A DNA stretch of 54,367 bases, taken from positions 1-54,367 of the IMG/VR virus record IMGVR_UViG_2531839448_000005; one strand, given 5' to 3'. Of the stretch, positions 13,033 through 30,720 are shown in pieces. Under the pieces are notes generated by a model that was not told where the DNA came from, made no database searches, and saw only the letters and a program-made list of their open reading frames with translations. Origin of the DNA: a virus (Duplodnaviria; Heunggongvirae; Uroviricota; Caudoviricetes). Both the position numbers and the translations under genes were made by a program. The stretch's first letter is position 1. Each line of letters begins with the position of its first letter.

Positions 13033-13338
13033 CTATGTTCCGGGATGAAATCGATACATCCGCAGTCCGGTATAGAAAAAATCAGGCACTGCATCCTGCA
13101 TTTCCCTGTTCTCGTACCAGTAGCCAACCAGTTGCATAAGACGCAGTTTTATCAGAGGTGTTATTACAAGCCCGGTCGTATCCTGCTCAGAAACAGTTTC
13201 ATCGTAAAGCGTCCGGTTTAAAAACTTTTCAGCCTCTTCCCTGGCAGCAGCCAGATACATCATAAGAAGAGAATTCTCCTGTTCATTGTCATCATCAATC
13301 CGGCACTGAACACGAAGCTCTTCCAGAGTGGGCATCAT
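13033..13338 (-). CDS. head-tail connector protein (gp6-like)
   Basis: 101 aa ORF downstream of the major capsid gene with motif YLAAAREEAEKFL. Confidence 0.5.
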   Translation of the reverse strand: MMPTLEELRVQCRIDDDNEQENSLLMMYLAAAREEAEKFLNRTLYDETVSEQDTTGLVITPLIKLRLMQLVGYWYENREMQDAVPDFFYTGLRMYRFHPGT

Positions 13339-13589: not shown

Positions 13590-14795
13590 TTACGCCGCTG
13601 CAATCTTCAGCAGTTTGATGGCCTGCGAATCGACCAGCATGCCGCCGGTGCGCTTGGTGGTATAAAAACCGACAAACGGTTTATTGGTGTACGGGTCACG
13701 CAGAATGCGGGTACCGATACGGTCAACGATGGTGTAACCCCGTTTGAAGTTACCAAATGCAATGGCTTTCGCATCAGCGGCAATATCCGGCATCTGTTCG
13801 TTTTCAGCGATAGCGTAACCCGCCAGAGAGGACGGCTGCCCCAGCTCCAGCCCCGGACGCCACAGATAGTTACCCTCACTGTCTTTCAGCAGACGGATGG
13901 CAAACAGACTGTTGTTGTTCATCATGAACTTCGCGCCAGTGCGGTGTGCCTTACGCAGCGTGTAAATCAGTTTGATAATGGCATCTGCGGTCACCGCCGT
14001 CGCTTCGCCGGATACAATATGCTGAAGTTTGCCGAACGCCCGGACCTTGTCTGTTTCATCCGTGGACTCATACGCCAGGAACCCTTTCGGCTTCTTGGTA
14101 CCATCGCCGGTGGTAAAGGCAATTTCTTCCTGTTCGGCAAATTCGGTTGCCAGCTCGCTGTTGATCCATGCTTCCACGTTGAAAAAGGCATCATCCAGCA
14201 TTTTCTGGGTGGCCTGCGGGTTACCGTAGATTTCCCCCATGAAAGGTTCAATCAGGCCCAGTTTTGAGGTGGCAGTCTGGGAGCGCGCGTCAGTCTCGCC
14301 AACCCATCCGGAAGCCGTGCCGCCCAGATTCACCAGTTTTTTGTAGTCGGAACCACCAACGCTGATCACCGTGGCTTCCTGGCGCATCACCACTTCATCT
14401 TTCAGCAGGGTGAGAATGTTGCGATCCAGTGCTTCCGGCACGGCATAGCCGCCGTCTTCATCGGTGCCCACCTGTAATGCCTTGCGCTCCAGATCGCGCA
14501 GACCATCTTCACGGCCTTTACGCAGGAAGCCCACAAACGCTTCTTTATGCTCGGTGGCCAGTTTATTTTGCGCACCACCTGCCGGACGTTTCAGCTCAAG
14601 CAGCTCTTTTTCAAGATCGCTTTTGAGGTTTTCCAGCTCGCTGAGTTTCCCGTTCAGGGTTTCCACCTGCCCGGCAAGTTTGCCTTTTTCCTGCTCAATC
14701 GCATCCACGCGCTTGTCGTTCTTTGCTTTGAAGTCGTCAAACTTCTGCTGCAGCTCCTGCGCGACCTGTTCGACATCTTTAATATCAACCGCCAT
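13590..14795 (-). CDS. major capsid protein, HK97 family
   Basis: 401 aa; N-terminal coiled-coil delta domain; motifs TGDGTKKPKGFLAY and DSQAIK. Confidence 0.85.
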   Translation of the reverse strand: MAVDIKDVEQVAQELQQKFDDFKAKNDKRVDAIEQEKGKLAGQVETLNGKLSELENLKSDLEKELLELKRPAGGAQNKLATEHKEAFVGFLRKGREDGLRDLERKALQVGTDEDGGYAVPEALDRNILTLLKDEVVMRQEATVISVGGSDYKKLVNLGGTASGWVGETDARSQTATSKLGLIEPFMGEIYGNPQATQKMLDDAFFNVEAWINSELATEFAEQEEIAFTTGDGTKKPKGFLAYESTDETDKVRAFGKLQHIVSGEATAVTADAIIKLIYTLRKAHRTGAKFMMNNNSLFAIRLLKDSEGNYLWRPGLELGQPSSLAGYAIAENEQMPDIAADAKAIAFGNFKRGYTIVDRIGTRILRDPYTNKPFVGFYTTKRTGGMLVDSQAIKLLKIAAA

Positions 14796-14809: not shown

Positions 14810-15496
14810 TTAGAAGTTTAGATTTTTCAGTGCATTCAGTGCAGAGCCCACATCCTCAGCGTCGCGCAGGGACAGTGCGCCATAGCCCCCGGCCATGAAT
14901 GCTTTGGCCTGGGTACGGGAGAGTCCGACATCACGCAGGACTCTTTCGATTTTTTTCTGTTCGGGGATTTCCCCGCGGGCCAGTGCGTTCTTGACGTCGC
15001 TGATCCGCGCCTCGTCGTTAGACGGGAACGTCACCAGGCTGACTTCCCAGAGGTCGATTTCTTTCAGCAGAAAGGCTTCTTTGCTCCGGTCGTATTCCCA
15101 GTCTTTCAGGACGTACCCAATAGAAAGGCCGGTTAACGAACCGGCCTTCATGTGTGCATGTGCGCGTTTTGCGAGGGGATCATCATCAATAAGCAACCGT
15201 CCCCTGACGTAAAGCCCGACATCGTCTTCCTTCATTTCGGTGTAAACACCGATGGGTTCATCCATGCGGTGCTGCCAGAGCAGCGCAGGTAACGCTTTTC
15301 TGTCACTCCACGCCCGCAGTGAAGCAGCAAATGCCCCGGACATCACCACATCATCGTGGCTGTCCTTTACACCAAAGACGGAGCCATACCCTTCAAACTC
15401 ACCGGAGTCACTGACAGATTTCAGACTCAGCGGTACATCAAGACGTTGTTTCGTCTGCATTGGCGTTATCCTTCTGCTTACCGGCTTTACTGCCAT
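14810..15496 (-). CDS. prohead protease (HK97 family)
   Basis: 228 aa ORF between portal and capsid genes. Confidence 0.7.
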   Translation of the reverse strand: MAVKPVSRRITPMQTKQRLDVPLSLKSVSDSGEFEGYGSVFGVKDSHDDVVMSGAFAASLRAWSDRKALPALLWQHRMDEPIGVYTEMKEDDVGLYVRGRLLIDDDPLAKRAHAHMKAGSLTGLSIGYVLKDWEYDRSKEAFLLKEIDLWEVSLVTFPSNDEARISDVKNALARGEIPEQKKIERVLRDVGLSRTQAKAFMAGGYGALSLRDAEDVGSALNALKNLNF

Positions 15497-16679
15497 CGGA
15501 TGGTTTCGTGGTCATGTTCATCGGTGTGAGATAGACATCCCCACCGGGACGCGGATTCATATCTTCCAGGTCGCGGCAGTCATTGGGAGAGTAAATTCCC
15601 CAGTTGATCCCGGTGGCGTAGGCTTCAAAACGGGACTTCATATCCCCGCGCAGTAACGCCCCGGCGTTAAATTTGGCGTAATAAACGCCCTGCTTACTTT
15701 TTCGTACCAGTCCGGTGTTGATCCGCTGTTCGATGCGGGTCAGATACGGCACCAGTGAATAGTTGATAAATCCCAGCCCCAGCTCTTCGATATTGTTGAA
15801 GGTGGCGCGATCGGTGTTCTGCACCATGTGCAACGGCACCCGGAACAGACGACAGATTTCTTCAAGCTGAAACTTGCGGGTTTCCAGGAACTGGCTGTCC
15901 TCGGCGTTCAGCGCCATCGACTTCCAGTCCAGCCCCATCTCAAGGATCATCGGGCGGTGAGCATTGCCAAGCCCGGTGTGACGCTCCTCAAAATCTTTCT
16001 TCAGGCGCTCATAAGCCTGATCCGACAGCGTCTGTTCTGTACGCAACACACCGGACGTCACCGCACCATTGCTGAACAGTCTGGCCCCGTGCTCTTCGGT
16101 CGCTGCTGCCAGCGATATTGCCTCGCGGGCATAGGCGATGGGATTCAGTCCCACCAGACCGTCCAGCGTCAGCGTGCGCACATGCCAGATATCTTCCTGG
16201 CTCAGTACATCCGTGGAACCGTCCGGGAATGTGACCTGATAGACCGGCTCCCAGCGACTGTTAAGCTTCGGTACCACACAACCGGGATCGACGGGCAGCA
16301 GTTCAGCCACTTCGCCAAATGCTTTCACTTTGTAGGCGTAAAAGTTTCCCCTCAGGCACAGACAGGTGACCACCAGCTCCCAGAACTCCTGCGGCGTCAT
16401 ATAGCCATTGGGATGCGTGGAGATCAGCTTATGCAGACGTTCGCCGGTGGCTCTCTGTTTCAGGCTGCCGTTCAGGTGATACAGATTGCAGGGCAACATC
16501 CCGACCGACTCTGCTAGCACTCTGACGCAGGAAAAAACCGCCGTCAGTCGCATGGCCCGCTGACTGCTGATCTGCTTTCCGGTATAGGTGTCGTAAGACA
16601 ACCCGATGGCATCCGCCAGCTCTGCTGGCGTGGTCACCGGCGCGTCACTTTTTCGTTGAAATAATCCCGAAAAGAACAC
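15438..16679 (-). CDS. portal protein (HK97 family)
   Basis: 413 aa ORF downstream of terL. Confidence 0.8.
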   Translation of the reverse strand: MFFSGLFQRKSDAPVTTPAELADAIGLSYDTYTGKQISSQRAMRLTAVFSCVRVLAESVGMLPCNLYHLNGSLKQRATGERLHKLISTHPNGYMTPQEFWELVVTCLCLRGNFYAYKVKAFGEVAELLPVDPGCVVPKLNSRWEPVYQVTFPDGSTDVLSQEDIWHVRTLTLDGLVGLNPIAYAREAISLAAATEEHGARLFSNGAVTSGVLRTEQTLSDQAYERLKKDFEERHTGLGNAHRPMILEMGLDWKSMALNAEDSQFLETRKFQLEEICRLFRVPLHMVQNTDRATFNNIEELGLGFINYSLVPYLTRIEQRINTGLVRKSKQGVYYAKFNAGALLRGDMKSRFEAYATGINWGIYSPNDCRDLEDMNPRPGGDVYLTPMNMTTKPSDGSKAGKQKDNANADETTS

Positions 16680-16861
16680 TATTTACCTCCGCCGACAGAC
16701 GGCTGTGTACGGTCGAGATATCGCGCCACCAGCCACGACCAGAACAGGCACAGCACCCCGGCAACAACAAAACCCGCCGGGGGATAAATCAGCCAGGCAC
16801 CATACGCCAGCAAAAGCGCACCCAGCACGCCCACCAGTGGCGCGAGAATTATCAGAAACAT
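16679..16861 (-). CDS. small membrane protein
   Basis: 60 aa hydrophobic ORF between the terL fragment and portal. Confidence 0.3.
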
Positions 16862-16872
16862 AATGACCTCGG

Positions 16873-17609
16873 TTAAAGCGAACGGATGCCCACGCTGACC
16901 AGATGTTCAGACAGATCCAGCTCCGGTTCACCACCATTGACCAGCATCCGGCTCATTGCTGTAAACATCGCAACAGGGCCGTCGATTTTGGCTTCCAGCG
17001 TGGATTTATTCGGGAAGATATTGTCGTTTTTGTCCGGTTTTACCGTAACGTTAGACATCATCCAGTTCATGACCGGATGATTGCTGTGATGGAAACGCCC
17101 GGCATAGACCAGTGATTCCGTTTCCTTCATGGCCTCTGACAGATTGCGAACCGTCTGCGGAACCTCCACCAGCGGTATCCCTTCTTCAGCCAGTGCCAGG
17201 CTGAACTGCATCGCGCTCCACGGGTCAAATCCCAGTTCCCTGAGGTTTTCACCACCAATCCATTCCAGTAAGTCACTTTTTATCTGAGCATGATCGATAA
17301 CATCACCATCCGTCAGAATCAGCTTATCCATCTCCGCCCACTTCCGGTAAAGTTCTGCCTGCTGCCGCGAGCATCGTTCCAGCCGTCCTTCCGGAAGCCA
17401 GAATTTAAAATCGGCATGAACATGCCCGTTATCCGTTCGCCAGAGTTTTGCCGCCGCACAGATATCAATCTTATGAGCAAGGTCAACGCCGACCCACATG
17501 GGATACGTTTTCAGCTCATGTCGTGGGGCAATGTATTCGCACTTCTCCCACTTAATCATGTCCATCCAGGCAGACTCTGCTGTTACCCACACATTCATGT
17601 GTTTGGTAA
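16873..17609 (-). pseudogene. terL: terminase large subunit, C-terminal (nuclease) fragment of the resident prophage; separated from its 5' part by the 15 kb insertion
   Basis: ORF begins MNVWVTAESAW and aligns to the C-terminal third of the intact island terL (shared WxxSNV and KPNK motifs); in-frame stop lies immediately upstream inside the island. Confidence 0.85.
17603..17609. repeat. left junction core TTGGTAA (direct repeat with 32655-32661)
   Basis: identical 7 bp at both insertion junctions; flanks join to an in-frame terL. Confidence 0.6.
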
Positions 17610-17683
17610 GAATATTTCAAGTTTTTTAAAATCACCTGTATATCAATCATTTAACATGAAAAACAGTCTTTATAAATCATCGA

Positions 17684-17704
17684 GCAATACACAGCGCAAT
17701 ACAC
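17684..17704. repeat. tandem GCAATACAC arm-type repeat (copy 1)
   Basis: GCAATACACAGCGCAATACAC; near-identical copy at 32504-32524 just upstream of int. Confidence 0.5.
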
Positions 17705-17891
17705 GTATCTGTATTGTTTTAATGCTGATACACACCGTTTTTTGATACAGTGATTCGACCTACCATCGCGAAGCATTTTTATTTCTTGTGTGTAACAATC
17801 TGACGAGGTGAGCACTCAAAGAGATAAGAGGCAGTAGAAATTTCGATCCCCCCCCTGAATGCAATTTTTCGTATATATATATACAAAACAG

Positions 17892-18046
17892 TGCGGGTTA
17901 TGCGGGTTAGCGGGTTATCTTCGCGTGCTAAGTATTTTTTACTCTTTAATATCAATACGTTAAAAACAACGTATCTAAATATCAGCCAGAATGTAACCCG
18001 CAAGACATTCAAAATAACCCGCAAACACCACTCAAATAACCCGCAA
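17892..18046. repeat. iteron cluster A: 3 direct plus 3 inverted copies of GCGGGTTA(T) flanking an AT-rich spacer
   Basis: TGCGGGTTAT, GCGGGTTAG, CGGGTTATC at 17892-17919; TAACCCGCAA at 17994, 18014, 18036. Confidence 0.6.
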
Positions 18047-18125
18047 AAACATCCCTGAAAGTGGGTGCCGATAATACTGAAAATTTATTCCATTAAATGA
18101 GCATTGTCCTCTCTCATCCATTCCG

Positions 18126-19787
18126 TTACACACCATCAAACGTCGCAAGCCGCTCTTTGTGGCTGTCGCTCATATCGAATGCAAATTCCTCATGCTCTGC
18201 CTGGAATGTGCCAAACGCCATCAGCGCCGCAACGCTCGGGTCTATCTTGTTGGATGATTTTTTCTTGTTCGGCTTGATATTGGCGTTCGCGTCACTCTGC
18301 ATCACAACATTACTCATTGACCAGGCCAGCACCGGATCACCACGATGCACAATCACCTTCCGGTTAACAAAAACTTCGAACGATTTCGCCGCCGGACTGA
18401 AACGAAGGTACGTTTGCGGGAACGGCTCCACCTCAAATCCCGCCCCCTGTAGCTGTGTTCTCAGGTGAGTGGCGTTCCATGTATCGAAGCCCACCAGCCT
18501 GATACTGAAATTCTCTGCATCCACCATGATGTCATCACGGATACGGTCATAATCAATGCAGTCACCCGGTGTTGTGCGTATCCAGCCCGCCTTTACCCAC
18601 TGGCGATAAATGGCGCGGTTTTTATTGGCGGGGTTCTGTAACTGAAATTCCGGCAGATAGTGACGGGAAACCAGCATAATCTTTTTACCGACCGGAAAGG
18701 CATAGCACACGCTGGAAATATCGCTGGTTGATGATAAGTCCAGCCCCACGTAGCACTCCTGCCCGTATAAATCCGCCTCCGCGAACGTTCCGGCGCACTC
18801 CGCCCATGCACCGTTACCCATCCACGGCGTAGCCCCCTGACACCAGATATTGAATCGCTTGGTGAGCATTTCCACCCACTGCGACGGAATACCCCGCGCT
18901 TTCTGGATGGTTGAGGCCAGTTTTTCACGATCGACGGAAACATCGATATTGGGATTCGCCTTTATCCACATCGCCGGATCGTCAACCTCGCTTTCATCAT
19001 CCAGCTCGTAAATCAGTACGAACATGGATTCGTTCACCTCTTCACCATCCAGTATCTGGCAGCAATAGTCGTAGTGTTGTTTACAGGCTGAAACAACGTT
19101 GCTCCCCGATGTGGTGATGGCAAATAATAACCCCTCCGGACGCGCCCCCATTCCCAGTTCAAGCGCGGAATAAACCCCGTTGTCAGGGTGCAGGTGATAT
19201 TCATCTACAATGGCAAGACTCGGGTTTGTACCTTCAATGGTTGCCGCTTTTGCTGCCAGTGGCTTTAACAGGCTGTTGGTTTTCGGGTGTATCACCTTGT
19301 GTGCCTGAATATTTACCCGCTTTCGTAACGGTCGGGATAAAAGGCACATCTGACGCGCATCATCAAACACGATCCGCGCCTGATCACGACTCACGGCGGC
19401 GGTGTAAATATCCTGCTGCCCGTTTTCCATAACCAGAAACCAGTTAGCCAGGATAGCGGCGACCGTGGATTTGGCATTTTTTCGCGGTACTTCAATGAAT
19501 GCGCTGGTGTATTTGCGCCGTCCGGTGGCCTTAACCTTAAAGCCCAGGATGCACGCAAAGGCGAACTGCTGCCACGGCTCCAGCTCAATGGGGCTACCGC
19601 GCATTGCGCCTTTTACGTGCGGACACACCCTGGAAAAGGCAATAAACCGCTCCACGACCTCCGGATCGAACGTGTAAAGGGGGTTTTCAAGGTCAGAAAA
19701 ATACCGTTTAACGGCCTGTTTCAGTCGTTTACAGGCCGTAATTTTGCCGTTTTTTACGCCTTCTGCGTACTCATGCCAGGCGGTCAA
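18126..19787 (-). CDS. terL: terminase large subunit (island-encoded, intact)
   Basis: 553 aa; ATPase and nuclease regions homologous to the split resident terL. Confidence 0.85.
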   Translation of the reverse strand: MTAWHEYAEGVKNGKITACKRLKQAVKRYFSDLENPLYTFDPEVVERFIAFSRVCPHVKGAMRGSPIELEPWQQFAFACILGFKVKATGRRKYTSAFIEVPRKNAKSTVAAILANWFLVMENGQQDIYTAAVSRDQARIVFDDARQMCLLSRPLRKRVNIQAHKVIHPKTNSLLKPLAAKAATIEGTNPSLAIVDEYHLHPDNGVYSALELGMGARPEGLLFAITTSGSNVVSACKQHYDYCCQILDGEEVNESMFVLIYELDDESEVDDPAMWIKANPNIDVSVDREKLASTIQKARGIPSQWVEMLTKRFNIWCQGATPWMGNGAWAECAGTFAEADLYGQECYVGLDLSSTSDISSVCYAFPVGKKIMLVSRHYLPEFQLQNPANKNRAIYRQWVKAGWIRTTPGDCIDYDRIRDDIMVDAENFSIRLVGFDTWNATHLRTQLQGAGFEVEPFPQTYLRFSPAAKSFEVFVNRKVIVHRGDPVLAWSMSNVVMQSDANANIKPNKKKSSNKIDPSVAALMAFGTFQAEHEEFAFDMSDSHKERLATFDGV

Positions 19788-20127
19788 GCTCGTCCTCTTC
19801 CTCTGTTTCCGGTGGATTTCTGCGGCGACTTACCGGGTCAAAACCCAGCAAAGAAGCCATTTTGATCATTATTCTTTCAGCGTCAGCCTTTGCGCTCAGG
19901 GCGGGGTTTCTGCTCTCGCTGCCCTGACTGTTAACAATGCTGAACCCGCGCGTGGCAAGGTCTTCGACGGCTTTGCGGTATATGGAGTAGTTAACGCAAT
20001 ACAGCTCCAGATTGCTCCAGTCGGCGGGGGTAAGGTCTTCCCGTCCGGAAAGCTGGCGCGATTTTTCCTTCCACTGCCTGACCGCGATTTCATCCAGGTA
20101 AGCGGGGGCTTTTGGTGGTCTTGCCAT
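19771..20127 (-). CDS. terS: terminase small subunit (P27-like)
   Basis: start MARPPKAPAYLDE; homologous in outline to the resident terS at 33682-34164. Confidence 0.7.
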   Translation of the reverse strand: MARPPKAPAYLDEIAVRQWKEKSRQLSGREDLTPADWSNLELYCVNYSIYRKAVEDLATRGFSIVNSQGSESRNPALSAKADAERIMIKMASLLGFDPVSRRRNPPETEEEDELDRLA

Positions 20128-20246
20128 GTTCTTTTTTCGCCCAATTATTTTCAAAAAAATTCCCGTGCACAAAAATTTGAGGAGGCGGTCGGTGTCCGGC
20201 AGGGACGGTTTTGTCCTGAAAACCTCCCCCACCCCCTCTGACGGCC

Positions 20247-20423
20247 TCACCAGCGATTGCGAAAACATTCCATGACCTCGCGGTCACGGTCGGTTAATCG
20301 CTTCGCTGTGGTGCGTTCTGTGCGCCCTGTCCTGTTGGCTTTGTGCCCTGTCTCCTGTGTCTTCCATAAGTCACGCTGCCTTATCAGTCCACGTATCAGC
20401 CTGTTTTGCTCCTGTTCAGTCAT
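20247..20423 (-). CDS. hypothetical small protein
   Basis: 58-codon frame between HNH and terS; weak. Confidence 0.2.
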   Translation of the reverse strand: MTEQEQNRLIRGLIRQRDLWKTQETGHKANRTGRTERTTAKRLTDRDREVMECFRNRW

Positions 20424-20856
20424 CATCGCCATACATCCAGTCGTTACGGTGTGCCGCCCGTTCTTCCTGCTCGCGATACATACCCGCCTTACGGTTCGCT
20501 TTCGTGGCTGGATCTTCCCGTGTTGTCTTACGGTTATGGCACGTCTGGCACAATGCCTGGTGGTTCCACTCAGGCCAGAAGAGAACATCACCGCCGCCAT
20601 TGATGGGAATGATGTGATCCACCACAAGAGCTGGCGTATAAATCCCCTTAGCCAGACAACGCACGCATAACGGATTTTTGCTCAGGTACAGGGCGCGGTA
20701 TTTGTCCCACTGTCGGGAATACCCGCGCGCGCGGCGGTGTCCCCGTCTGGCATCCTCTGCACGCCATGCAGCCCGCCTGTGATCTTCGCACTTGCCGGAC
20801 TTCACGCGCTTATTACAGCCCGGCTCAGTGCATCGCCTTAATGGTTGCCACGGCAT
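20416..20856 (-). CDS. HNH endonuclease
   Basis: paired CxxC motifs plus HNH-like core DHIIPINGGG...NHQALCQTCHNRK. Confidence 0.8.
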   Translation of the reverse strand: MPWQPLRRCTEPGCNKRVKSGKCEDHRRAAWRAEDARRGHRRARGYSRQWDKYRALYLSKNPLCVRCLAKGIYTPALVVDHIIPINGGGDVLFWPEWNHQALCQTCHNRKTTREDPATKANRKAGMYREQEERAAHRNDWMYGDDD

Positions 20857-21155
20857 CAGTACACCCCTACATCACGATAAACCGACCAGAGCGCAGAAAT
20901 AGCCATAGGCAGTTCAGACTGCTCCACAGGTGAAACCGCTTCCCTGTTCTCGTACAGGAAAGCGATGTACATCAGGCAACCAACACGTATTGCCGGGGTA
21001 AATTCCAGCCCGTCTTCAAAACGTTTCCCGATATGCTTCTGGCAGGCTTCCAGCGCCGCATCGGTATACATTTTCAGAAGTTCGCCCTCACCTGAGAAGT
21101 CATCAAGGCGAAGATGTGCCCTGACTTCATCAGGTGTAATTTTTTCTTCACTCAT
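20856..21155 (-). CDS. head-tail connector protein (gp6-like)
   Basis: start MSEEKITPDEV; about 100 aa; similar in outline to the resident connector. Confidence 0.55.
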   Translation of the reverse strand: MSEEKITPDEVRAHLRLDDFSGEGELLKMYTDAALEACQKHIGKRFEDGLEFTPAIRVGCLMYIAFLYENREAVSPVEQSELPMAISALWSVYRDVGVY

Positions 21156-22362
21156 CTTTTTCACCTTTAATTTCCACCGTCTGCTTCCATGCCTGGCTGA
21201 ACTCGTCACCACCTTCACGCGGCGGCATCCCCTCACGTTCGCGGGCTTCGTTCGGATTCATGATCCCGTTCTTAATCCCTTTCTCATACGTGGCGTAACG
21301 CTCGGTTGGAGTAGCGCGCAGTAAATCGGCTGAATCAAACTCAACCAGATAACGGGTACCAGGTATGGGAGAAGCCACCAGCAAAGCGGCCTTAATTTGC
21401 TGTTCGAAGTTCGCCAGCCATGGGCGCATTGTCATGGTCAGAAACGCGCGGCTTGCCTCACTGAAATTGCTGTAGGTGCTGTTGCTGTATTCCTGAAGAA
21501 AAATCGGCGACACGTTGAACATCCGGGCGATGTCTTCAATGGAGAAGCGACGGGAGGCCAGCCATTCTGCATCCTGGTTACTCATCCCCAGTTGCTTGTA
21601 ATCCATACCCCCTTCAAGGATTGGCGTTTTTCCGGCATTTTTCGCCCCCTTGTAGCGTTCCAGGGCGTCTAATGCCTGTTTACCTTTCACGCCGTCCAGC
21701 CATTCGCCTGACGTGATAATCCCTGCCGCCATCATGCCATCTTTCATAATGCTGGCTCCGTGACGCTGTTGAGCAAGGCCAAGCCCCAGCGCCTCACGGC
21801 AAATCGTGACAGGGGAGCGCCCCAGAAAGCCATCATCCGAGGCATAGCGGAGATGCAGAACTTCTTCCTGCAAATACGTGCGCACCGTTCCTGTATAGGG
21901 TTCGGTGATGGTATAGCGGTATTTGTGTGCGCCAGTGCGTTCCGGTACAACACACCCCGGCGCATAAGGATGAAGTGATTTTGGCTGACCGTCCCGCCCC
22001 CACTCAATAACCGCATAGGCGTTACCGTTCAGCAGGCAGTGACGCATCATTGTGCGTTTAAACTGGTAAGGTGTCTGGCACGAATTAGGCTGCTCATTCA
22101 GCAGAATATCGACCGGGTGACTGTCCAGCCATTCCCGCGCCTCCCTGCCCTTGTCATTGCGTACCAGATACAGATAACACGGCATCGTGGCCACCGCCTC
22201 AGCGATGACAGAAACCGCGTTCATCACAGCAGGCAATGATTCAGCCGTCCCGGCAGAAACATATTCTCCGGATCCGGTATTCGGTACGCCGGACAGCGCC
22301 AGAAAATCATCAATGGACAGGTTACGCAGATCGCTTTTTTTACGACTAAAAGGCCACCACAT
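21148..22362 (-). CDS. portal protein
   Basis: about 405 aa from MWWPFSRKK; pattern resembles the resident portal. Confidence 0.75.
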   Translation of the reverse strand: MWWPFSRKKSDLRNLSIDDFLALSGVPNTGSGEYVSAGTAESLPAVMNAVSVIAEAVATMPCYLYLVRNDKGREAREWLDSHPVDILLNEQPNSCQTPYQFKRTMMRHCLLNGNAYAVIEWGRDGQPKSLHPYAPGCVVPERTGAHKYRYTITEPYTGTVRTYLQEEVLHLRYASDDGFLGRSPVTICREALGLGLAQQRHGASIMKDGMMAAGIITSGEWLDGVKGKQALDALERYKGAKNAGKTPILEGGMDYKQLGMSNQDAEWLASRRFSIEDIARMFNVSPIFLQEYSNSTYSNFSEASRAFLTMTMRPWLANFEQQIKAALLVASPIPGTRYLVEFDSADLLRATPTERYATYEKGIKNGIMNPNEAREREGMPPREGGDEFSQAWKQTVEIKGEKDE

Positions 22363-22363
22363 A

Positions 22364-22924
22364 TCACAACCCCGCCAGTTCAGCCCAGCGATGACGATTA
22401 TTTCCTGTCGGGCGTAATTCAGGGTGCTGTGCAAACAACGAACGGTGGGCAATCTCCACGCCGGATTCGGGATAAGCAGGCATCGACGTTATCGTGATTT
22501 CACGGAGTTCTGCGGCGGTAACAGTGCGCAGATACGGTTTTTGCGCGATATTCCACTCTTCGCATAATGCGCGAAAGCCAAAGCTCATTCCTGTAATGTC
22601 GCCACGCTCCACCAGCGTAAGCACATCTTTTCCAAGCTGGGTATCAGGCGGTGTCAGTTCAAAACGTAGCCCGGTGTTGTCCTCAGTCAGTACCAGTGTT
22701 CCGGATTTGGTGCGCCCCAGCAGTCGGGTATAGTCATGCTCATACAGGCAGCGCACATCATTACCCGCCGCCAGATAGTCAGCAAAAGCCCCCGGCGTGA
22801 ACTGTTCGCGGAATTCGTCCCAGATAATTTCTGAAAGGCTGTTCCAGCGAACGGCATACCCCACCAGCTTTTTATTGCTGGCGGTCAGTTCAGATGTGCG
22901 GATTTCAAAATCGGTGTTTTTCAT
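22364..22924 (-). CDS. prohead protease (HK97 / peptidase U35-like)
   Basis: 186 aa; GYAVRW, YEHD and GMSFGF motifs. Confidence 0.7.
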   Translation of the reverse strand: MKNTDFEIRTSELTASNKKLVGYAVRWNSLSEIIWDEFREQFTPGAFADYLAAGNDVRCLYEHDYTRLLGRTKSGTLVLTEDNTGLRFELTPPDTQLGKDVLTLVERGDITGMSFGFRALCEEWNIAQKPYLRTVTAAELREITITSMPAYPESGVEIAHRSLFAQHPELRPTGNNRHRWAELAGL

Positions 22925-22978
22925 CGGTGTACTCCATAAAGCTGAAAAAGGAGGCCGCAGCCTCCTCCTTACTCATGA

Positions 22979-24148
22979 CTAGCCAGCTTTCATTTCCAGA
23001 ATTTTGATGGCGTTTGAATCCACCACACCACCGCCCAGATATTTATCCGTGTGGACCTTGTAGAATCCGGGTTCAGTAATGTTGTCCGGTCGGGTGCGAA
23101 TCCCTGTTACATGATCAACGATGAAATAACCACGACTGAAATCGCCAACCGCTAGCGGTGCTTTTCCTGCGCCGATGTCCGGCATGGACTCCAGGCAGAA
23201 AACAGGACGACCAAGCAACATATCCGGCGCACCTTCTTTAAGGCTGTCGCGCCAGATATAATCGCCATTCTCATTTTTCAGCTTCTGTAGTGTCCCTGCC
23301 GTGCCCGAGTTCATCACCCAGACGGCATTTTTGCGGTATTTCGCTTTCAGCTTGTAGAGAATGTCGATCAGTTCGTCCGCTGTAATGGCGGTTCCACTTG
23401 CCGCTACCACTTTTTCAATGGTGCCAAAAGCGCGGGTTTTGTCACTGGTCGCCGCACGGGTGTAAGCCATGAAGCCTTTCGGCTTGCCGTTACCGTCGCC
23501 ATTAACAAAATCATCCTCTTCGGTGCTGGCGAACGTGTCGGCAATTTCGGAGGATAACCAGCCCAGAATATCCACCTCTGAAAAATCCAGGATTTCCTGC
23601 GTGGTTTTCGGGTAGGCGTAGATCGGATTCAGCTTGATGGTTACACGTTCAATTTTCGGGGTGTTGGTTTCACTACGTGCGCTGCCTTCTGTGCCTCGTC
23701 CTACAGTTGCGCCGCCAGTGGAAACCAGTTTCTGAAACTCATTTGATTTTGCGGTCTTCACGGTCGCGATCACGCGCATAACACTGTCATCCTGTAGCTG
23801 GCGCATGACTTCGCGATCAAGCTCAGGAATTACGGTATATCCGCCATCCCTGCCGCTGTCAGTGCTGGTGGACAGTGATCGCACATCTCCGGTTACGATG
23901 TAGTTACGCAATTCATCAGATGATAATTTCTGGATGCCCGTTCCTGGCTTGCTGCGTTCTTCATCAGCCACAGACTCGAGGCGGTAAATTTCTGTGTCGA
24001 GGGAATCGGCTTTTGCACGCAGTTCATCAAACTGTTTGCCCTCGTCATCGTTCAGGCTGCGGTTTTCACTGTCGGCTTTTTCCAGCAGGGATCGCATCTG
24101 GTTTTTCAGGGCGGTTTTTTGCTGGCGGAGTTCGATTAATTTCTTCAT
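22979..24148 (-). CDS. major capsid protein, HK97 family
   Basis: 389 aa; coiled-coil N-terminus; GDGNGKPKGFMAY and DSNAIK motifs parallel the resident capsid protein. Confidence 0.85.
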   Translation of the reverse strand: MKKLIELRQQKTALKNQMRSLLEKADSENRSLNDDEGKQFDELRAKADSLDTEIYRLESVADEERSKPGTGIQKLSSDELRNYIVTGDVRSLSTSTDSGRDGGYTVIPELDREVMRQLQDDSVMRVIATVKTAKSNEFQKLVSTGGATVGRGTEGSARSETNTPKIERVTIKLNPIYAYPKTTQEILDFSEVDILGWLSSEIADTFASTEEDDFVNGDGNGKPKGFMAYTRAATSDKTRAFGTIEKVVAASGTAITADELIDILYKLKAKYRKNAVWVMNSGTAGTLQKLKNENGDYIWRDSLKEGAPDMLLGRPVFCLESMPDIGAGKAPLAVGDFSRGYFIVDHVTGIRTRPDNITEPGFYKVHTDKYLGGGVVDSNAIKILEMKAG

Positions 24149-24422
24149 GAAGGTTTTCTCGTATTGGTTAAGATTCAGGACGTGAAACCAACACGGAGGG
24201 AGCGCCGCCCGACACTCTCGGCATCTCGCAGATCAACCCGGCATCGCGCAGGGGGTCAGGCGGCATTGTGGCGGCTCACGTCTGAGTGCCACACGCCAAC
24301 ATATACATAAAAATCAGTATGTAAACATCAGCCAGAATCACCGAACAACCTGGAACAACCACGAACAAATAATTTACAAAACCTGAAAAAAAGACCTGGA
24401 GAAAATCCAGGCCTTTATCGCT

Positions 24423-24671
24423 TTATTGTTTCACTGGATCCCGCATTCTGCGTCTTATTTTCCACAGATATTCGATCATCGCTTCCACCTGCTCACGATT
24501 GGTTGCGAAAATTTCCCCGGTCAGTGAGCTGCGCAGAAAATCATGATGATCCACAACAAACAACGCATCGGAAGAAAGCAGACGGCGATATTTTTTTGCT
24601 GTCGTGGTTTCCAGATCATCAAAACCATGAAACTTTTTATGTTGCTGGACTTCTTCAAATGTCACTGGCAT
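24423..24671 (-). CDS. hypothetical protein
   Basis: 82 aa ORF. Confidence 0.35.
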   Translation of the reverse strand: MPVTFEEVQQHKKFHGFDDLETTTAKKYRRLLSSDALFVVDHHDFLRSSLTGEIFATNREQVEAMIEYLWKIRRRMRDPVKQ

Positions 24672-25204
24672 GTATCCCCCTTTGCCGCCCGGCGCTGGCG
24701 CTTGTGCTTCTCATTCAGCGCCATCAGCCGCGTTTCTGCCTCCTGCTGTTCCTGTGGTGTCACTTCCCCACATGGCTGGCCTTTCAGGTCGTATCGTACC
24801 CCACCAGCAACCAGGGCGCGGTAATAGCGCGGAGACTGCGCATAAGATGCCAGCGTCGCACGTAATGCCCCCGGCCCGAATGCCAGCCCCCTGACGGCGA
24901 GATCCTGCATCAGGTCGTCGAATATCCCCACCTTAAGCGGCTTCGGTGCTTCCCTGTTGAATAAGTCAGGCCACATCTCAGTGAGGCGGTTAACGCGCCT
25001 GCGGTTTTTGCGCTGGCGTTTGGTCATATGCCGCCACGGTGTCACCCCTGTGGGCTGCCCTTTGCGGCTCTGCTGTGCGTTCTGATTGCCGGGTATCACT
25101 TTATGCGCCGATGTGGTTTTATCCCGCTCTTGCGCCGCCTGCGTCGTTTTCTGCGGCGTGCCGTAAATGCCTTTCGGTTTTCGGTTAATGGTCAGCTTTG
25201 TCAT
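24662..25204 (-). CDS. ProQ/FinO-domain RNA-binding protein
   Basis: LKVGIFDDL...ALRATLASYAQSPRYYRALVAGGVRYDLKGQPCGEVT aligns by eye to the E. coli ProQ N-terminal domain as recalled. Confidence 0.6.
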   Translation of the reverse strand: MTKLTINRKPKGIYGTPQKTTQAAQERDKTTSAHKVIPGNQNAQQSRKGQPTGVTPWRHMTKRQRKNRRRVNRLTEMWPDLFNREAPKPLKVGIFDDLMQDLAVRGLAFGPGALRATLASYAQSPRYYRALVAGGVRYDLKGQPCGEVTPQEQQEAETRLMALNEKHKRQRRAAKGDTCQ

Positions 25205-25368
25205 GCCTTCCCCTGTAATTACTCTGTTCGCTGTTGTGAATTAAAACGGTATGTTATCCCCGTACAGGTCATCGTGCTGGCCTGTCTGTTGTTTTGCCCT
25301 GTTCAGTGCGTCAGTGGCCTGCCCCTGTTGGCCTTTTTTGCCGCCCGGTCGCGCCGTTCTCGCACTGA

Positions 25369-25665
25369 TTACGCTGTCTGCGATGACCTGCCAGCCCTGC
25401 CGCGTTTCGCCGTTCTGCCCTGTCCACTGCTTACCTGCATGTTACCCGCCACGCTCACCAGTTCGCCTTTGCGGTGTTTTGCCAGTGCGTCGGCCTGTCT
25501 GCCAAACGCCAGGACGGATAACCACATCGTCGCCGTTCCGTCATCTGCCTGGCTGCATGGCAGGGGAACCGCCATACTCGCCATCGCCATTTGTGTTCCC
25601 TTGCTGGTGGTCTTTAACTGCGGGTCAGCCACCAGCCGCCCGTAAGCCGCTATCTGTGCTGTCAT
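25369..25665 (-). CDS. SSB-like OB-fold protein (tentative)
   Basis: 98 aa; pattern GRLVADPQL...WLSVLAFGRQADAL...GELVSVAGNMQV resembles an SSB core. Confidence 0.35.
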   Translation of the reverse strand: MTAQIAAYGRLVADPQLKTTSKGTQMAMASMAVPLPCSQADDGTATMWLSVLAFGRQADALAKHRKGELVSVAGNMQVSSGQGRTAKRGRAGRSSQTA

Positions 25666-25728
25666 GCTGTCTGCTCTCCGGTTTTAACGTTGATGGTTAC
25701 GCTTGTTTACACCCTTACGGTGAAATTC

Positions 25729-25854
25729 TGCGGGTTATAATCGCACTTTTGCGGGTTATAACTGCCGTTTTGCGGGTTACGTGCGGGTTATTGATTTCCT
25801 TTTTATTCATACAGTTAATGCACTTATATACATGATAACCCGCATAACCCGCAA
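25729..25854. repeat. iteron cluster B: 4 direct plus 2 inverted copies of TGCGGGTTA(T) flanking an AT-rich spacer; candidate replication origin
   Basis: copies at 25729, 25751, 25771, 25782 (direct) and 25835, 25845 (inverted); immediately 3' of the primase gene. Confidence 0.6.
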
Positions 25855-25875
25855 CTTTTCACCTCACACAGGGGG

Positions 25876-27999
25876 TTAATCTTCTGCCTCAGGCTGGAAC
25901 ATCAGCACGTAAAAAACATGCTGCTTCCCCCCAATTTTGCCGAGCGCCTTTTTCTTGTAACGGCGATCGTTACCCGCTTCCAGCATTCCGGCAGCACTCA
26001 ACGCGCGGGCAAAGTGAGACGGATTAAATCCCTGTGCTATCTCACCCTCAAATACATGCGGGAACGTGTAAAAACGGAACTCGTCATCTTCGTTTCTGAT
26101 ACTCCCCTTTCTGTATCCGGCAAGTTCTTTAATCGATAAATCACGCTCGTCGGTATTGGGCCACGGAAGGTATCTGCTGAATCCGAACGACGCTAAAAAA
26201 GCTTCTGCCTGTTCAACCATCTGTTTAAATTCCCTGTTACCCGTGCCGAACTCCTTCACCCAGGCATTAAAATTATGCTGTATGGCATCGCGGCATTCCT
26301 GCTCATCCCAGCCAGTAACATGACCTGAAAGCACAAGCGCGGCCTCCAGTATGGCAAATCGCTCCCCCACACGGTGAACCTGTTCGCCGTAGCTCTCCGG
26401 TATCAGGTTGCGCCACCGCTCACGGCATGTCCTTACCGTGTCCTTTGCCTCCTGCTGGTGTTCTGCCAGCCATTTAACCCACTCACGACCCGCCGCCCCG
26501 TGATTTTCTGTCCAGGCATCCTTTAACGCGTCTGCGTGCGCCTTTCCGGTGCTGTATTCGTGAAATTGCGTGGCTTTTTCCATCGGAACGTTAAGCAGGC
26601 GGACAAGCTGCCCCGCTTTGACTTTTATCCCCTCCGTTTTGAGGAATGTCTCAACGTCCATTTCTCCGGTGCTGATTGCCACCGTGCGCCAGTGTTTGAT
26701 CTCCCTGTTGCCGCCGTCCTTCGCCCCCTGTAATTTCCCCGAACCGTTAAACAGCGTATAGGCTGACGTGGACACCTCCCGCGCGTTTCCGGCCTGGCCT
26801 ATTTCATCCAGGGGTAAAAGCCCGTCATTGTGTGCCTCTGCTTCGTTGGCGATACCTAACGCTGTGCCGTACCAGGTCAGCCGCTGCGCGTCCGGCTCTC
26901 CCCATAAACTTGATGCGATGTTCTGTGTGGTGGTTTTCCCTGCCGATGACTGTTCGAAAAGATGTACCCCGAAGCCGTCAGCGCCCACCAGCCCGATTAA
27001 TGGTGCGGATAACGATACCGCCACACCCAGCATCATGGACGGATTACCACCAGCCAGCCGCGCAACGGTATCGCGCCAGCCCTCCGCCGTTCCTGCCACG
27101 GAATAGCCATTAACAGCAGCCGTTTTTCCGGTAAACAGGACTGGCTTTTCGCAATCACCAATGACCGAACCGTCCGGCATGATGTACGCGCCAAAATGCC
27201 AGCCCGTTGTTGTGCTTAACTGCCATTCCTCATGGCTTCCGCTTAACTGCATCCAGTCAGCCAGGATAGCCCTGTATTTACCGTTGGTTGTTACGTTCAG
27301 TCCGTGGTCTTTCAGCAACCGCCAGCCGTCACGGTCGCCAATGCCACCGCACGGAACCGCCATTGTGATGACTTCATGGTTTGCTAATTTTTTCCAGCGC
27401 ATCACGCGGTAATGCTCTTTACCGATTGTCCCCGTTCCCAGTAGTTCAAGCGGGGAACATAACCACGTCTCAGGCCGGATAATTTCGCCTGACTGCTTAT
27501 CCACTTTTGGCGTTACCCAGAAAACACCATCGGCGCGACTTTCAACGCGGGGCTTTAATTCATCATCGCCCTGGATTTCTGTGATTTTTTTCTTTAAGGG
27601 CAACACCAGACTTTCCCCGCGCTCGTATTCGTCTTTGAGGCGAGGCAACTGGTCGGATAAATCCGCCGGGCTGATGTCAGTTATCCCCGCGTATTCGTAT
27701 ACGGTCTTCACGCCAGCCACAGCCAGCAACGTGACGATCTGTGTAAGGCTACGTTCAGTGATGTGCCCTGCGCGGTAAACACGCACACACTGACGGCTAT
27801 CATCAATAATTTGATAACCGGTAATATCTTTCAGGTGTTCATCTGACAGAACGACAGGCGGCACATTGTCGGCGGCAATATGCTTACCTGCCCATTCCTG
27901 CCACTCTTTCGCATGGCTCCACGCATCACTACCCGCAAAGATGATAACCTCCGTCATTTTGTCGGCTGGCTGGTGCTTTAAGTTTGGTGCGCGCTTCAT
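25876..27999 (-). CDS. primase / replication protein (P4 alpha-like, DUF927-type)
   Basis: 707 aa; central Walker-like GEPDAQ...SSAGKTT region; adjacent iterons. Confidence 0.6.
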   Translation of the reverse strand: MKRAPNLKHQPADKMTEVIIFAGSDAWSHAKEWQEWAGKHIAADNVPPVVLSDEHLKDITGYQIIDDSRQCVRVYRAGHITERSLTQIVTLLAVAGVKTVYEYAGITDISPADLSDQLPRLKDEYERGESLVLPLKKKITEIQGDDELKPRVESRADGVFWVTPKVDKQSGEIIRPETWLCSPLELLGTGTIGKEHYRVMRWKKLANHEVITMAVPCGGIGDRDGWRLLKDHGLNVTTNGKYRAILADWMQLSGSHEEWQLSTTTGWHFGAYIMPDGSVIGDCEKPVLFTGKTAAVNGYSVAGTAEGWRDTVARLAGGNPSMMLGVAVSLSAPLIGLVGADGFGVHLFEQSSAGKTTTQNIASSLWGEPDAQRLTWYGTALGIANEAEAHNDGLLPLDEIGQAGNAREVSTSAYTLFNGSGKLQGAKDGGNREIKHWRTVAISTGEMDVETFLKTEGIKVKAGQLVRLLNVPMEKATQFHEYSTGKAHADALKDAWTENHGAAGREWVKWLAEHQQEAKDTVRTCRERWRNLIPESYGEQVHRVGERFAILEAALVLSGHVTGWDEQECRDAIQHNFNAWVKEFGTGNREFKQMVEQAEAFLASFGFSRYLPWPNTDERDLSIKELAGYRKGSIRNEDDEFRFYTFPHVFEGEIAQGFNPSHFARALSAAGMLEAGNDRRYKKKALGKIGGKQHVFYVLMFQPEAED

Positions 28000-28310
28000 T
28001 TTGCCTTTCCCCGTTCACGAATAATTTCACGTACTGCCTTAATGCGTTCCATTCCTGTAACGCGCATGATTCTGTCGATGTCGCTTAATTCTGCTGGTGG
28101 TGCTTTACTTACCAAGGTGAACTCCCTGTCAAAGCGCATATGTGACGACACGCAGGGATGCGCATAACCTTCGCGGATATAGGTCACACGAAAATCATCG
28201 ACGGTTTTGATCGTTATCGTGCTGCCGTATTTATCCTGGAAAATATCGCCGGGGCGGATTTCAGGCCGAGCGGGGCCGCTGGCAGTAAAGCCAGAATTTT
28301 TCTTTTTCAT
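27996..28310 (-). CDS. hypothetical protein
   Basis: 104 aa ORF overlapping the primase start. Confidence 0.4.
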   Translation of the reverse strand: MKKKNSGFTASGPARPEIRPGDIFQDKYGSTITIKTVDDFRVTYIREGYAHPCVSSHMRFDREFTLVSKAPPAELSDIDRIMRVTGMERIKAVREIIRERGKAK

Positions 28311-28315
28311 GTTTT

Positions 28316-28564
28316 TTACTCCAGAGGCAGCTTTTTAGCGGCGAGCTCAATATCAGATGTCAGAGAAACCTGTGTATTTGCCAGGTCTAACAACAAAGAA
28401 ATAAGAATTTCTTCTCTGCTATCGGATTTATCGGTGCTAAGGCTGTTCATCCACATATTGACGACTTCCCTGATTTTTTTCGCAGAGTGCAGGGCTTCAA
28501 ATGCCAGGTCTTCAATATCATGTTTATTTCGCATAATCGCCCCCGCCATTTTCACAATCAGCAA
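28316..28564 (-). CDS. hypothetical protein
   Basis: 82 aa ORF. Confidence 0.3.
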   Translation of the reverse strand: MLIVKMAGAIMRNKHDIEDLAFEALHSAKKIREVVNMWMNSLSTDKSDSREEILISLLLDLANTQVSLTSDIELAAKKLPLE

Positions 28565-28769
28565 TCAGGATGGCTTTTGCCTCATTCAGCGCCATATCAG
28601 CACTAAATTGCATAACAGCCAGTGAGTGAGGAACGAAAGCCCCGGCATATTCTGTTTCGCTGGTGGCGTGCTTATGCGCCTTGTCTGCGATAACAGAAAT
28701 ATCAATCAGCGCGTGCATCAGCGTTTTGATGGCTTCGGCGGCTGCGTCCGGACGGGTGTTATTGCACAT
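28524..28769 (-). CDS. hypothetical protein
   Basis: 81 aa ORF. Confidence 0.3.
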   Translation of the reverse strand: MCNNTRPDAAAEAIKTLMHALIDISVIADKAHKHATSETEYAGAFVPHSLAVMQFSADMALNEAKAILIADCENGGGDYAK

Positions 28770-29073
28770 GGCGCACCTCCTGACGAATACGGGCAGCGAA
28801 TACCATCACGCAGCCAGCCGGGGATTGCTGGCGTGCTTCCTGTTCGCTAGTGGCCTCAATGGTAATCACACGCGGTTGTGCCGTGCTCAGGGCGATAAAA
28901 CGCCAGATGTATTTATTCAGGTTGTGCGAGTCCCGCCCTTGCGGGTGTGTGGTATGATTTAACATAGCTACCTCGATAATCTTGCTATCGTTGGTGGTTA
29001 GAAGCCCGGTTAGTGTTAGCGCACTGCCGGGTTTCGTCGTTTGTATTTCAATAAAACCATTGGTGTGTTTCAT
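28759..29073 (-). CDS. hypothetical protein, first gene of the island leftward operon
   Basis: manual call: ATG at 29071-29073 inside the operator motif, 105 codons; the 393 aa track ORF is a read-through artefact. Confidence 0.35.
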   Translation of the reverse strand: MKHTNGFIEIQTTKPGSALTLTGLLTTNDSKIIEVAMLNHTTHPQGRDSHNLNKYIWRFIALSTAQPRVITIEATSEQEARQQSPAGCVMVFAARIRQEVRHVQ

Positions 29074-29150
29074 GTTATTTTGGAGTGAAACACACGTCAA
29101 GCCTTTTTTGTATTTCTTTTTTGTGTATACTGAAACACACCAAATTTGAG
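29050..29150. promoter_or_regulatory. divergent promoter region with three copies of operator-like motif TGAAACACAC / GTGTGTTTCA
   Basis: copies near 29055-29068, 29083-29096 and 29138-29150 between divergent genes. Confidence 0.5.
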
Positions 29151-29161
29151 GAGTTTCAGTT

Positions 29162-29467
29162 ATGGCGACTACCAACAAAAACGCTAAATCACAATTGACC
29201 ACCGTCAGAGTCCCCCACGATGTTATGGAGGGCATGGAATCCGTAAAACTGGACGGCGAAAGCAACGCCGGATTCATAGTAACCGCCATGCGCGGTGAGA
29301 TCGCCCGCCGCCAGGCAGAAGGAAGCGGAGAAAATCCCCTGGTTTCTTCGCTCGATGCACTGGCGCAGGTGGAAAAAATTGGAGTCAAGGCTGCCGAGGA
29401 GATCGGGCAACTCGTCACCGTCGCGCGTGAAGAACTCCAGCGACGCAAGGTCAAAGAGCAGGAATAG
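29162..29467 (+). CDS. hypothetical protein, candidate island regulator
   Basis: 101 aa ORF divergent from the island operon, directly downstream of the operator triplet. Confidence 0.4.
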   Translation: MATTNKNAKSQLTTVRVPHDVMEGMESVKLDGESNAGFIVTAMRGEIARRQAEGSGENPLVSSLDALAQVEKIGVKAAEEIGQLVTVAREELQRRKVKEQE

Positions 29468-29524
29468 CCACTATCAGCGCCATAGTTTGAGGAACGCAGG
29501 CGCATTGCTTTACAGGACAGCACC

Positions 29525-29704
29525 ATGAGCGACACAGAATCAACCAAAACACCATCACCAACTCGTAAGAGACGACGCAAAAATATAGCGCATGAACATG
29601 AATCAGAAAGATTCGCACCTTGTTCGTTTGCTCTTGAGAAATTCCTTAAAGAGCACAGGAAAAAGCTCTCGTTGCAAACCTTGGAACGAACCAAATCTGA
29701 CTGA
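29525..29704 (+). CDS. small basic protein
   Basis: manual 59-codon ORF MSDTESTKTPSPTRKRRRKN; below the track length cutoff. Confidence 0.25.
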   Translation: MSDTESTKTPSPTRKRRRKNIAHEHESERFAPCSFALEKFLKEHRKKLSLQTLERTKSD

Positions 29705-29770
29705 TCACATTGCCCACCAGCCGCAAATGTGGCATTGTTGGTGATGCTTTTGTTTTCCCTTGTTCCCACT

Positions 29771-29800
29771 GGCGACCCTTTTGCGGTCGCCTTTGTTTTG
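29771..29800 (+). terminator. rho-independent terminator
   Basis: GGCGACC/GGTCGCC stem followed by TTTGTTTTG. Confidence 0.6.
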
Positions 29801-29892
29801 CCTGTTATCCGGCAATAGTGGCGCTTCGTCACCTGTCTGATATAATTCCACAGCTTATATTCATTTTTTGCGCAGTAGGTTAATTGTTCGCA

Positions 29893-30663: not shown

Positions 30664-30720
30664 TGCTTTTTACCTCACATACAAAAAACCCCGCATTGCG
30701 TGGTGCGGGGTTGTCGGTAA

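Follow-up and report, generated by a model that had tools for sequence, protein, structure and literature searches.

A head and packaging operon inside a prophage terL gene has the gene order of capsid-forming satellites

The DNA discussed here, called the window, is the whole of the virus record IMGVR_UViG_2531839448_000005 (54,367 nucleotides), which carries a lambdoid prophage with an HK97-type head and, at 18126-24148, a second set of head and packaging genes. This second set is very probably the late operon of a 15,052-bp capsid-forming phage-inducible chromosomal island (cf-PICI), a member of the helper-embedded PICI (HE-PICI) group A:Terminase_1:246 that lies co-oriented within the terL gene of the prophage and has inherited its gene order. 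An earlier sequence-only reading of the window had singled out that order and called it inverted relative to the resident prophage. Both the order and the embedding in terL are already known, so the finding is real but ordinary. The splitting of the prophage terL by the island, on which that reading was silent at least in its remark on the order, is a more notable feature than the gene order, and it has likewise been published.

The genes of the island were called from Pfam and PHROGs profile matches. In transcription order, the seven genes of the operon are as follows:

22979-24148, minus strand: major capsid protein of the HK97 fold family, 389 amino acids (Phage_capsid, E 3.6e-71)
22364-22924, minus strand: prohead serine protease S78 (Peptidase_S78, 9e-46)
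21148-22362, minus strand: portal, 404 amino acids (Phage_portal, 6.5e-93)
20856-21155, minus strand: head-tail adaptor, Ad1 or gp6-like, 99 amino acids (phrog_40, 1.1e-27; Pfam Phage_connect_1 weak, 0.00087)
20416-20856, minus strand: HNH endonuclease, packaging cofactor (Pfam 1.3e-09; phrog_144, 1e-44)
19771-20127, minus strand: terS, 118 amino acids, P27/Terminase_4 family (Terminase_4, 4.2e-23; start as in RefSeq)
18126-19787, minus strand: terL, 553 amino acids (TerL_nuclease, 4e-53; TerL_ATPase, 4.3e-26)

All seven of the identities that the sequence-only reading had proposed for the island (capsid, protease, portal, connector, HNH, terS, terL) hold, including the two on which it had staked its claim, the products of 22979-24148 and 21148-22362, which are indeed capsid and portal. 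The corresponding genes of the resident prophage, again in transcription order, are these:

34313-34663, minus strand: HNH
33682-34164, minus strand: terS
32655-33682, minus strand: terL, 5' part, with the ATPase domain and positions 2-68 of the nuclease profile (open reading frame (ORF) 32489-33682)
16873-17602, minus strand: terL, 3' part, with positions 64-283 of the nuclease profile (ORF 16873-17598)
15438-16679, minus strand: portal
14810-15496, minus strand: protease
13590-14795, minus strand: capsid
13033-13338 onward, minus strand: connectors

The prophage order of HNH, terS, terL, portal, protease, capsid and connectors is thus as had been described, and it lies on the same strand as the island operon. 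The terL gene has its place in that order, but it is a gene in two parts, split by the island. The two orders do differ; the word “inverted” does not fit, since every gene is co-directional, and a simple inversion is rejected for that reason. What is seen is a permutation of co-directional genes. The HNH-terS-terL unit is collinear in island and prophage, and the morphogenesis block of the island stands upstream of the packaging genes instead of downstream, with capsid and portal exchanged within it.

The proteins of the two sets are diverged homologues and not recent copies, as had been proposed. Amino acid identity between island and prophage is 36% for the capsid, 20% for the protease, 33% for the portal, 33% for the adaptor, 40% for HNH, 27% for TerS and 32% for TerL, and pairwise comparison of the head and packaging genes found no meaningful nucleotide similarity. 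A recent capture of the head genes of this helper is rejected on the latter ground.

The order of the island genes is shared far beyond this window. A scan with the island TerL against one genome per species gave 80 loci with TerL identities of 68-92%, spanning Enterobacterales, Pasteurellales, Orbales and Aeromonas. The seven-gene order was identical in all 59 loci that had enough upstream sequence (two of them with an extra gene copy), contig ends truncate the remaining 21, in which only the terminal part is seen and has the same order, and no deviating order was found among the 80. This is also the layout described for proteobacterial cf-PICIs by Alqurainy et al. (10.1101/2022.09.08.507074), in which morphogenesis genes are followed by hnh-terS-terL, with EcCIEDL933 as the prototype. 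The sequence-only reading had pointed to cf-PICIs as the proper comparison, and rightly so. The significance that it had implied for the order is lost in that same comparison: the layout is published and conserved and, being invariant across related loci, carries no information specific to this island or this prophage. The succession capsid-protease-portal-adaptor-HNH-(cos)-terS-terL is accordingly read as the fixed layout of proteobacterial cf-PICIs, held by descent and not made by local rearrangement.

Compared by published description, the island resembles proteobacterial cf-PICIs in its gene set (integrase, AlpA, replication protein, and capsid to terL) and in its order, its size of about 15 kb (published, about 14-15 kb), its lack of tail or lysis genes and its low homology (<40%) to phage proteins. 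The PICI backbone of integrase, AlpA and replication protein is present in that order and co-directional. The island differs in that it sits in a prophage gene and not in a chromosomal attB, and one adaptor or connector gene was identified in it.

The lineage of the terminase points the same way. When the island TerL was compared with 50,697 phage records, only five exceeded 60% identity: four of satellite size (10.7-16.5 kb) and one Klebsiella record of 106 kb. All other records fell below 60%, and the best full-size phages among the matches listed reached about 37% or less. To judge by sequence, the island TerL forms a clade separate from phages, in agreement with the published view of cf-PICI genes as a separate lineage. 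Several GenBank phage records, LR881103.1 (“Escherichia phage vB_KppS-Ant”, 16,548 bp), OR544138, OR544139 and PQ569648, are of satellite size and have TerL proteins 70-83% identical to that of the island; their gene sets mark them as cf-PICIs deposited as phages.

HK97-like phages are the other natural comparison. They have homologous capsid, S78 protease, portal, adaptor, HNH, P27-type TerS and TerL proteins, a collinear HNH-cos-terS-terL unit, and a similar layout of the cos region. The island departs from them in having its morphogenesis block upstream of HNH and not downstream of terL, with capsid and portal swapped, in lacking tail, lysis and phage-type early genes, and in proteins that are only 20-40% identical. 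Filing the island as an HK97-like temperate phage was considered and rejected, since tail and lysis genes are lacking and the order terS-terL-portal-protease-capsid is permuted in it.

The order could also be thought of as the scar of a captured set of helper late genes. Integrase-assisted late-gene capture has been proposed by Tommasini et al. (PMC10111431): a satellite in or near terL would have excised aberrantly together with both flanks, and circularization would have put the morphogenesis genes ahead of HNH-terS-terL. A published HE-PICI does carry two helper-derived segments in reversed order that abut at the att site in the prophage (PMC10111431), and in the window the succession adaptor-HNH-terS-terL-attP is the arrangement expected from such a swap of flanks, in an island that is itself embedded in terL. 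Yet the process predicts portal-protease-capsid where capsid-protease-portal is observed, and a split or chimeric terL where the island terL is complete. The low protein identities and the lack of meaningful DNA similarity speak against a recent capture from this helper, and with the order fixed across Enterobacterales, Pasteurellales, Orbales and Aeromonas any capture would have been ancient and single. An origin of the order by capture is therefore considered improbable, and inheritance within the cf-PICI lineage is the reading retained here.

The insertion into the prophage terL can be followed to the nucleotide. The island occupies 17603-32654 and is co-oriented with terL on the minus strand. 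Its two ends are marked by a shared crossover core:

17603-17609, minus strand: attR crossover core TTACCAA, at the junction of the island right end with the 3' part of the prophage terL
32655-32661, minus strand: attL crossover core TTACCAA, at the junction of the 5' part of the prophage terL with the island left end

Deletion of 17603-32654 in silico gives an in-frame TerL of 585 amino acids (...VNFFTKHMNVW...) with one contiguous nuclease match over positions 2-283 of 286. The rejoined junction, that is, attB in the restored terL, is predicted to read GTGAATTTTTTTACCAAACACATGAAT. The empty, rejoined 402-bp site is present in 905 of 5,426 complete E. coli genomes, with 100% identity in at least 26, and the occupied attL junction is found in 36 complete E. 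coli genomes. Given the 7-bp core at both ends, the rejoining in frame and the existence of both empty and occupied genomes, the insertion is precise, site-specific and recurrent.

A near-identical island in genome NZ_OZ282453 has the core TCACAAA at both junctions in place of TTACCAA, a difference that amounts to a synonymous variant of the target terL codons. In both strains the identity is limited to exactly 7 bp, which marks these as the region of strand exchange. The island's own terL reads TCACCAA at the site homologous to the att core (18852-18872), a match to TTACCAA in six of seven positions, and the flanks of this site are diverged, which presumably prevents self-insertion.

The same observations dispose of the thought that the second head module is left over from a further HK97-like prophage, in tandem or nested, and that a local rearrangement or a faulty assembly has put its genes out of order. 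A full HK97-type head and packaging set does stand beside another such set, and homopolymer indels in the window suggest an imperfect sequence. Such a history is hard to square with a precise 7-bp crossover, a terL restored in frame and hundreds of empty sites, with an integrase, AlpA, Bro and primase zones of the PICI type and no tail or lysis genes, or with the same island at the same site in 36 independent complete genomes from different strains and sequencing centres. Together with an identical order in 59 of 59 related loci, this leaves it a negligible chance, and it is refuted for practical purposes.

The site and the integration machinery place the island, read as a cf-PICI, within a second published class. 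Tommasini, Mageeney and Williams (2023; PMC10111431) described HE-PICIs that sit in nine different prophage late genes, at 14 sites in all, and point the same way as the gene they interrupt. These elements have the doubled attP motif tgTGTATTGCantgTGTATTGCa in two copies of one orientation, the first about 81 bp upstream of the attP centre and the second about 132 bp downstream of it. Among the E. coli elements in the supplementary table of that work are those named “Eco....15.A_Terminase_1_246”, for which the att identity is given as “ttaccaa”. In the window, the doubled TGTATTGC motif is found exactly two times, against 0 expected, in co-oriented copies on the minus strand that flank the core:

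17684-17703, minus strand: attP arm motif TGTATTGCgctgTGTATTGC, copy upstream of the attP centre
32504-32523, minus strand: attP arm motif TGTATTGCactgTGTATTGC, copy downstream of the attP centre

From the core centre to the start of the downstream copy is 135 nt, compared with 133.5 nt in the founding element (strain NRG857c). The upstream copy covers 78-97 nt from the centre, near the published value of 81, though the figure varies with the reference point chosen. One listed A_Terminase_1_246 member has island-side attL and attR sequences identical to the island ends in the window. With that group the island also shares its target (the terL cognate of lambda gene A), the 7-bp att identity, the co-orientation, the presence of the doubled motif twice, the four zones of Integration, Bro, Replication and Late and the 15-kb size class. 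Nothing essential differs from the group, apart from two homopolymer frameshifts in int in this copy, and the integrase encoded in NZ_OZ282453 is 50% identical to that of the founding HE-PICI 11capE over 398 amino acids, its full length (E 3e-144, in a pairwise comparison only). The cf-PICI label was not used for A_Terminase_1_246 elements in PMC10111431; this element falls where the published descriptions of cf-PICIs and of HE-PICIs overlap.

Between the two cores, the island holds an integrase, two AlpA genes, Bro-N, an Icd-like gene, DUF4222, a DUF927 protein, ssb, ProQ/FinO and the head and packaging operon, as well as YlcI/YnfO, which is on the plus strand; the others are on the minus strand. 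No match to tail, lysis or holin families was found among its ORFs, with Pfam and PHROGs or in the RefSeq annotation of the 99.9% identical copy in NZ_OZ282453. The features upstream of the capsid gene are:

31262-32483, minus strand: tyrosine integrase (Arm-DNA-bind_3 and Phage_integrase)
30721-31029 and 31063-31290, minus strand: AlpA-family regulators
30085-30663, minus strand: Bro-N protein
25876-27999, minus strand: replication protein DUF927, 707 amino acids
24662-25204, minus strand: ProQ/FinO-family protein
24423-24671, minus strand: 82-amino-acid phrog_1957 protein

The packaging genes of the island come with a candidate cos of their own. The cos region and a small gene next to it lie between HNH and terS:

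20247-20432, minus strand: conserved 61-amino-acid ORF between HNH and cos (phrog_3173; PHROGs and RefSeq)
20176-20236, minus strand: putative cos in the HNH-terS spacer, with a G-run GGGGGTGGGGGAGG, about 30 nt, ACCGACCGCCTCCTCAAA, and then an A/T-rich run

The same spacer of the resident prophage reads GGGGAGGGGCGGGG ... ACCGCCGCCTGA, and the G-runs lie at 20223-20236 in the island and 34281-34294 in the prophage. The HK97 record begins and ends in the spacer between its HNH gene and terS; its right end reads GGGGGGGGG, about 30 nt, and ACCGCCGCCAAA at the terminus, so that the G-run stands about 45 nt before the right genome end. An ACCGCC element after the G-run is common to island, prophage and HK97. 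Across 71 sequences examined, the prophage and the island included, 54 have a G-run about 110-130 nt upstream of terS. The G-run motif is likely part of cos in HNH-dependent packaging systems, and the island's cos likely lies at about 20176-20236, in the HNH-terS spacer as it does in HK97. Packaged as a linear molecule, the island would on that placement run terS-terL-iterons-attP-int-...-rep-capsid-protease-portal-adaptor-HNH. The satellite record LR881103 begins 22 nt ahead of terS and stops shortly past the G-run, with about 85 nt apparently missing; it was considered as a way to fix the position of cos and set aside, being only suggestive, with ends that are perhaps arbitrary.

Beyond terL, at the terminus of the island, lies a group of repeats. 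The window holds 14 copies of the 9-mer TGCGGGTTA, where 0.35 would be expected. No shuffle reached that count, and almost all of the copies fall in two clusters:

25729-25853, no strand assigned: iteron cluster A, six TGCGGGTTA copies in two sets that flank an AT-rich stretch, starting 23 bp 3' of the stop codon of the DUF927/primase gene
17892-18046, no strand assigned: iteron cluster B, three spaced TGCGGGTTA copies, an AT-rich gap and three tight inverted copies (five exact copies and one variant)

The sequence-only reading had reported the cluster beside terL, and it is real. Cluster B adjoins the 3' end of terL in non-coding DNA and is the mirror image of cluster A, an inverted second copy; on the 15.05-kb circle, the two are about 7.8 kb apart one way and about 7.2 kb the other. 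In gram-negative PICIs the origin lies directly after pri-rep and has an AT-rich region with a set of iterons on either side (PMC6092414), and cluster A, by its sequence, is at this canonical position. The suggestion that the terminal iterons are tied to the placement of terS and terL did not fare as well, as the same 9-mer clusters behind the primase gene and the word varies with the replication protein. For example, a Rosenbergiella island with an AAA_25 helicase as replication protein has GTGCGGCA at the same two places in inverted orientation, and two Proteus islands with a P4 alpha-like protein have GGTGCACA, again at the same two places and inverted, while TerS in these three loci is 78-82% identical to that of the window. 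The repeat word varies as the replication protein does while TerS stays similar, so the repeats track the replication protein and not the terminase.

It is against this background that a packaging role for cluster B has to be judged, whether as a set of cosB-type TerS sites or as a pac-like site. The cluster is directly 3' of terL in non-coding DNA, and terminase recognition sites are often repeats. The same identical 9-mer in six copies 23 bp behind the primase gene, which is the published position and architecture of a PICI ori, argues otherwise, as do the change of word in the three other loci with TerS still 78-82% identical, the lack of any such cluster 3' of terL in most relatives whose TerS and TerL are closely related, and the conserved HK97-like cos motif upstream of terS. 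A packaging element is thus very unlikely here. Cluster B probably belongs to the replicon as a second initiator-binding site, and points to replication.

The pairing of the two clusters recalls the satellite phage P4, which has a bipartite replicon of ori and crr, both bound by its alpha primase-helicase; the description of ori and crr reportedly goes back to Flensburg and Calendar in 1987 and to Ziegelin and Lanka in 1995. The island likewise has two separated clusters of one iteron, one by the replication gene and the other near int and attP, and the replication protein is P4 alpha-like in L015, one of the relatives that also have twin clusters. It differs in that the replication protein of the window is DUF927 and not P4 alpha, and P4 has no capsid or terminase genes. 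Tentatively, some cf-PICIs, this one included, might have a bipartite replicon in which the initiator encoded by the island itself binds cluster B and the cluster is required in cis, after the manner of ori and crr in P4; this is put forward as a possibility with somewhat less than an even chance. The repeat word co-varies with three unrelated types of initiator (DUF927, AAA_25 and P4 alpha-like), and no description of twin iterons or of a bipartite replicon for PICIs was found in the literature searched, so the twin co-varying clusters may be a small new observation. If true, the bipartite replicon would offer a testable P4-like origin in a subset of these satellites.

In the life cycle suggested by other members of the family, induction of the prophage would be followed by excision and replication of the prophage-island composite. 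For 11capE, it is published that the composite comes first and that excision of the satellite then restores the late gene of the helper (PMC10111431). The island integrase and AlpA would next excise the island, by the same analogy, and recombination across TTACCAA would rejoin the helper terL in frame, a step predicted from the junctions in the window. The island should replicate from iterons bound by its DUF927 replication protein. Its late operon may then build small capsids, and the HNH, TerS and TerL of the island would cut its DNA at the island's cos and package it. The helper would supply only the tails and probably lysis.

Several points weigh against this account of the island as an active embedded cf-PICI. 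The integrase frame is broken in the window by two 1-nt contractions of A runs, at 31586 and 31339; if these were real, the island could not excise, the prophage terL would be permanently disrupted and the prophage would be without a functional TerL. Tail piracy and the order of events rest on other members of the family and not on this strain, and the putative cos was placed by its position and by its likeness in motif to HK97. One head-tail adaptor gene was identified in the island, and some relatives carry two genes between portal and HNH. Twin iteron clusters are clear in only 4 of the 70 loci scanned (the island of the window, L003, L015 and L022), with a few further loci as candidates with distant second clusters, and twin iterons as a family-wide trait are rejected on that count. 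The first of these points is softened by NZ_OZ282453, where the integrase of the 99.9% identical island is intact at 407 amino acids. Five indels separate the two islands (31339, 31586, 17658, 17775 and 17961), and because all are 1-nt contractions of A/T homopolymers, a sequencing artefact is suggested as more likely than a real change.

As a discovery, the island matters little, since published work already covers the layout and the embedding in a terminase gene, and 36 complete E. coli genomes have this island at this site. Where it does matter is annotation. Both pieces of terL are best recorded as one split gene restorable by excision and not as products of decay, and the second head module is that of a satellite, which would be a competitor of the prophage in packaging and yet depend on it for tails.

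A number of smaller observations concern the rest of the island and the prophage. The ssb gene, at about 25241-25665 (minus), is interrupted by stop codons, and RefSeq marks it as frameshifted in the near-identical island too; the defect is common to both islands, so it is not a sequencing error specific to the window. A consensus scan for promoters and terminators over 17400-26000 gave four promoter-like sites against 7.3 in shuffles, which is fewer, and is uninformative on operon boundaries; one such site lies upstream of the capsid gene, at 24325-24298. An Rfam scan of 16800-34800 at a relaxed threshold found no match to the C4 or isrK immunity RNAs that are on record for some HE-PICIs. Its only hit was a sub-threshold SymR-like match at 28966-29038 (plus; 33.6 bits against a gathering score of 61, E 0.0046) in the regulatory zone, antisense to the region of the Icd-like gene, which could be a chance match or a small antisense regulator. 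On the prophage side, four adjacent tRNA genes (Gly-TCC, Thr-TGT, Lys-TTT and Met-CAT) lie at 37420-37729 (minus), upstream of the lysis and packaging genes. At that place, the otherwise similar prophage of NZ_OZ282453 has a tRNA-Arg and a tRNA-Ile.

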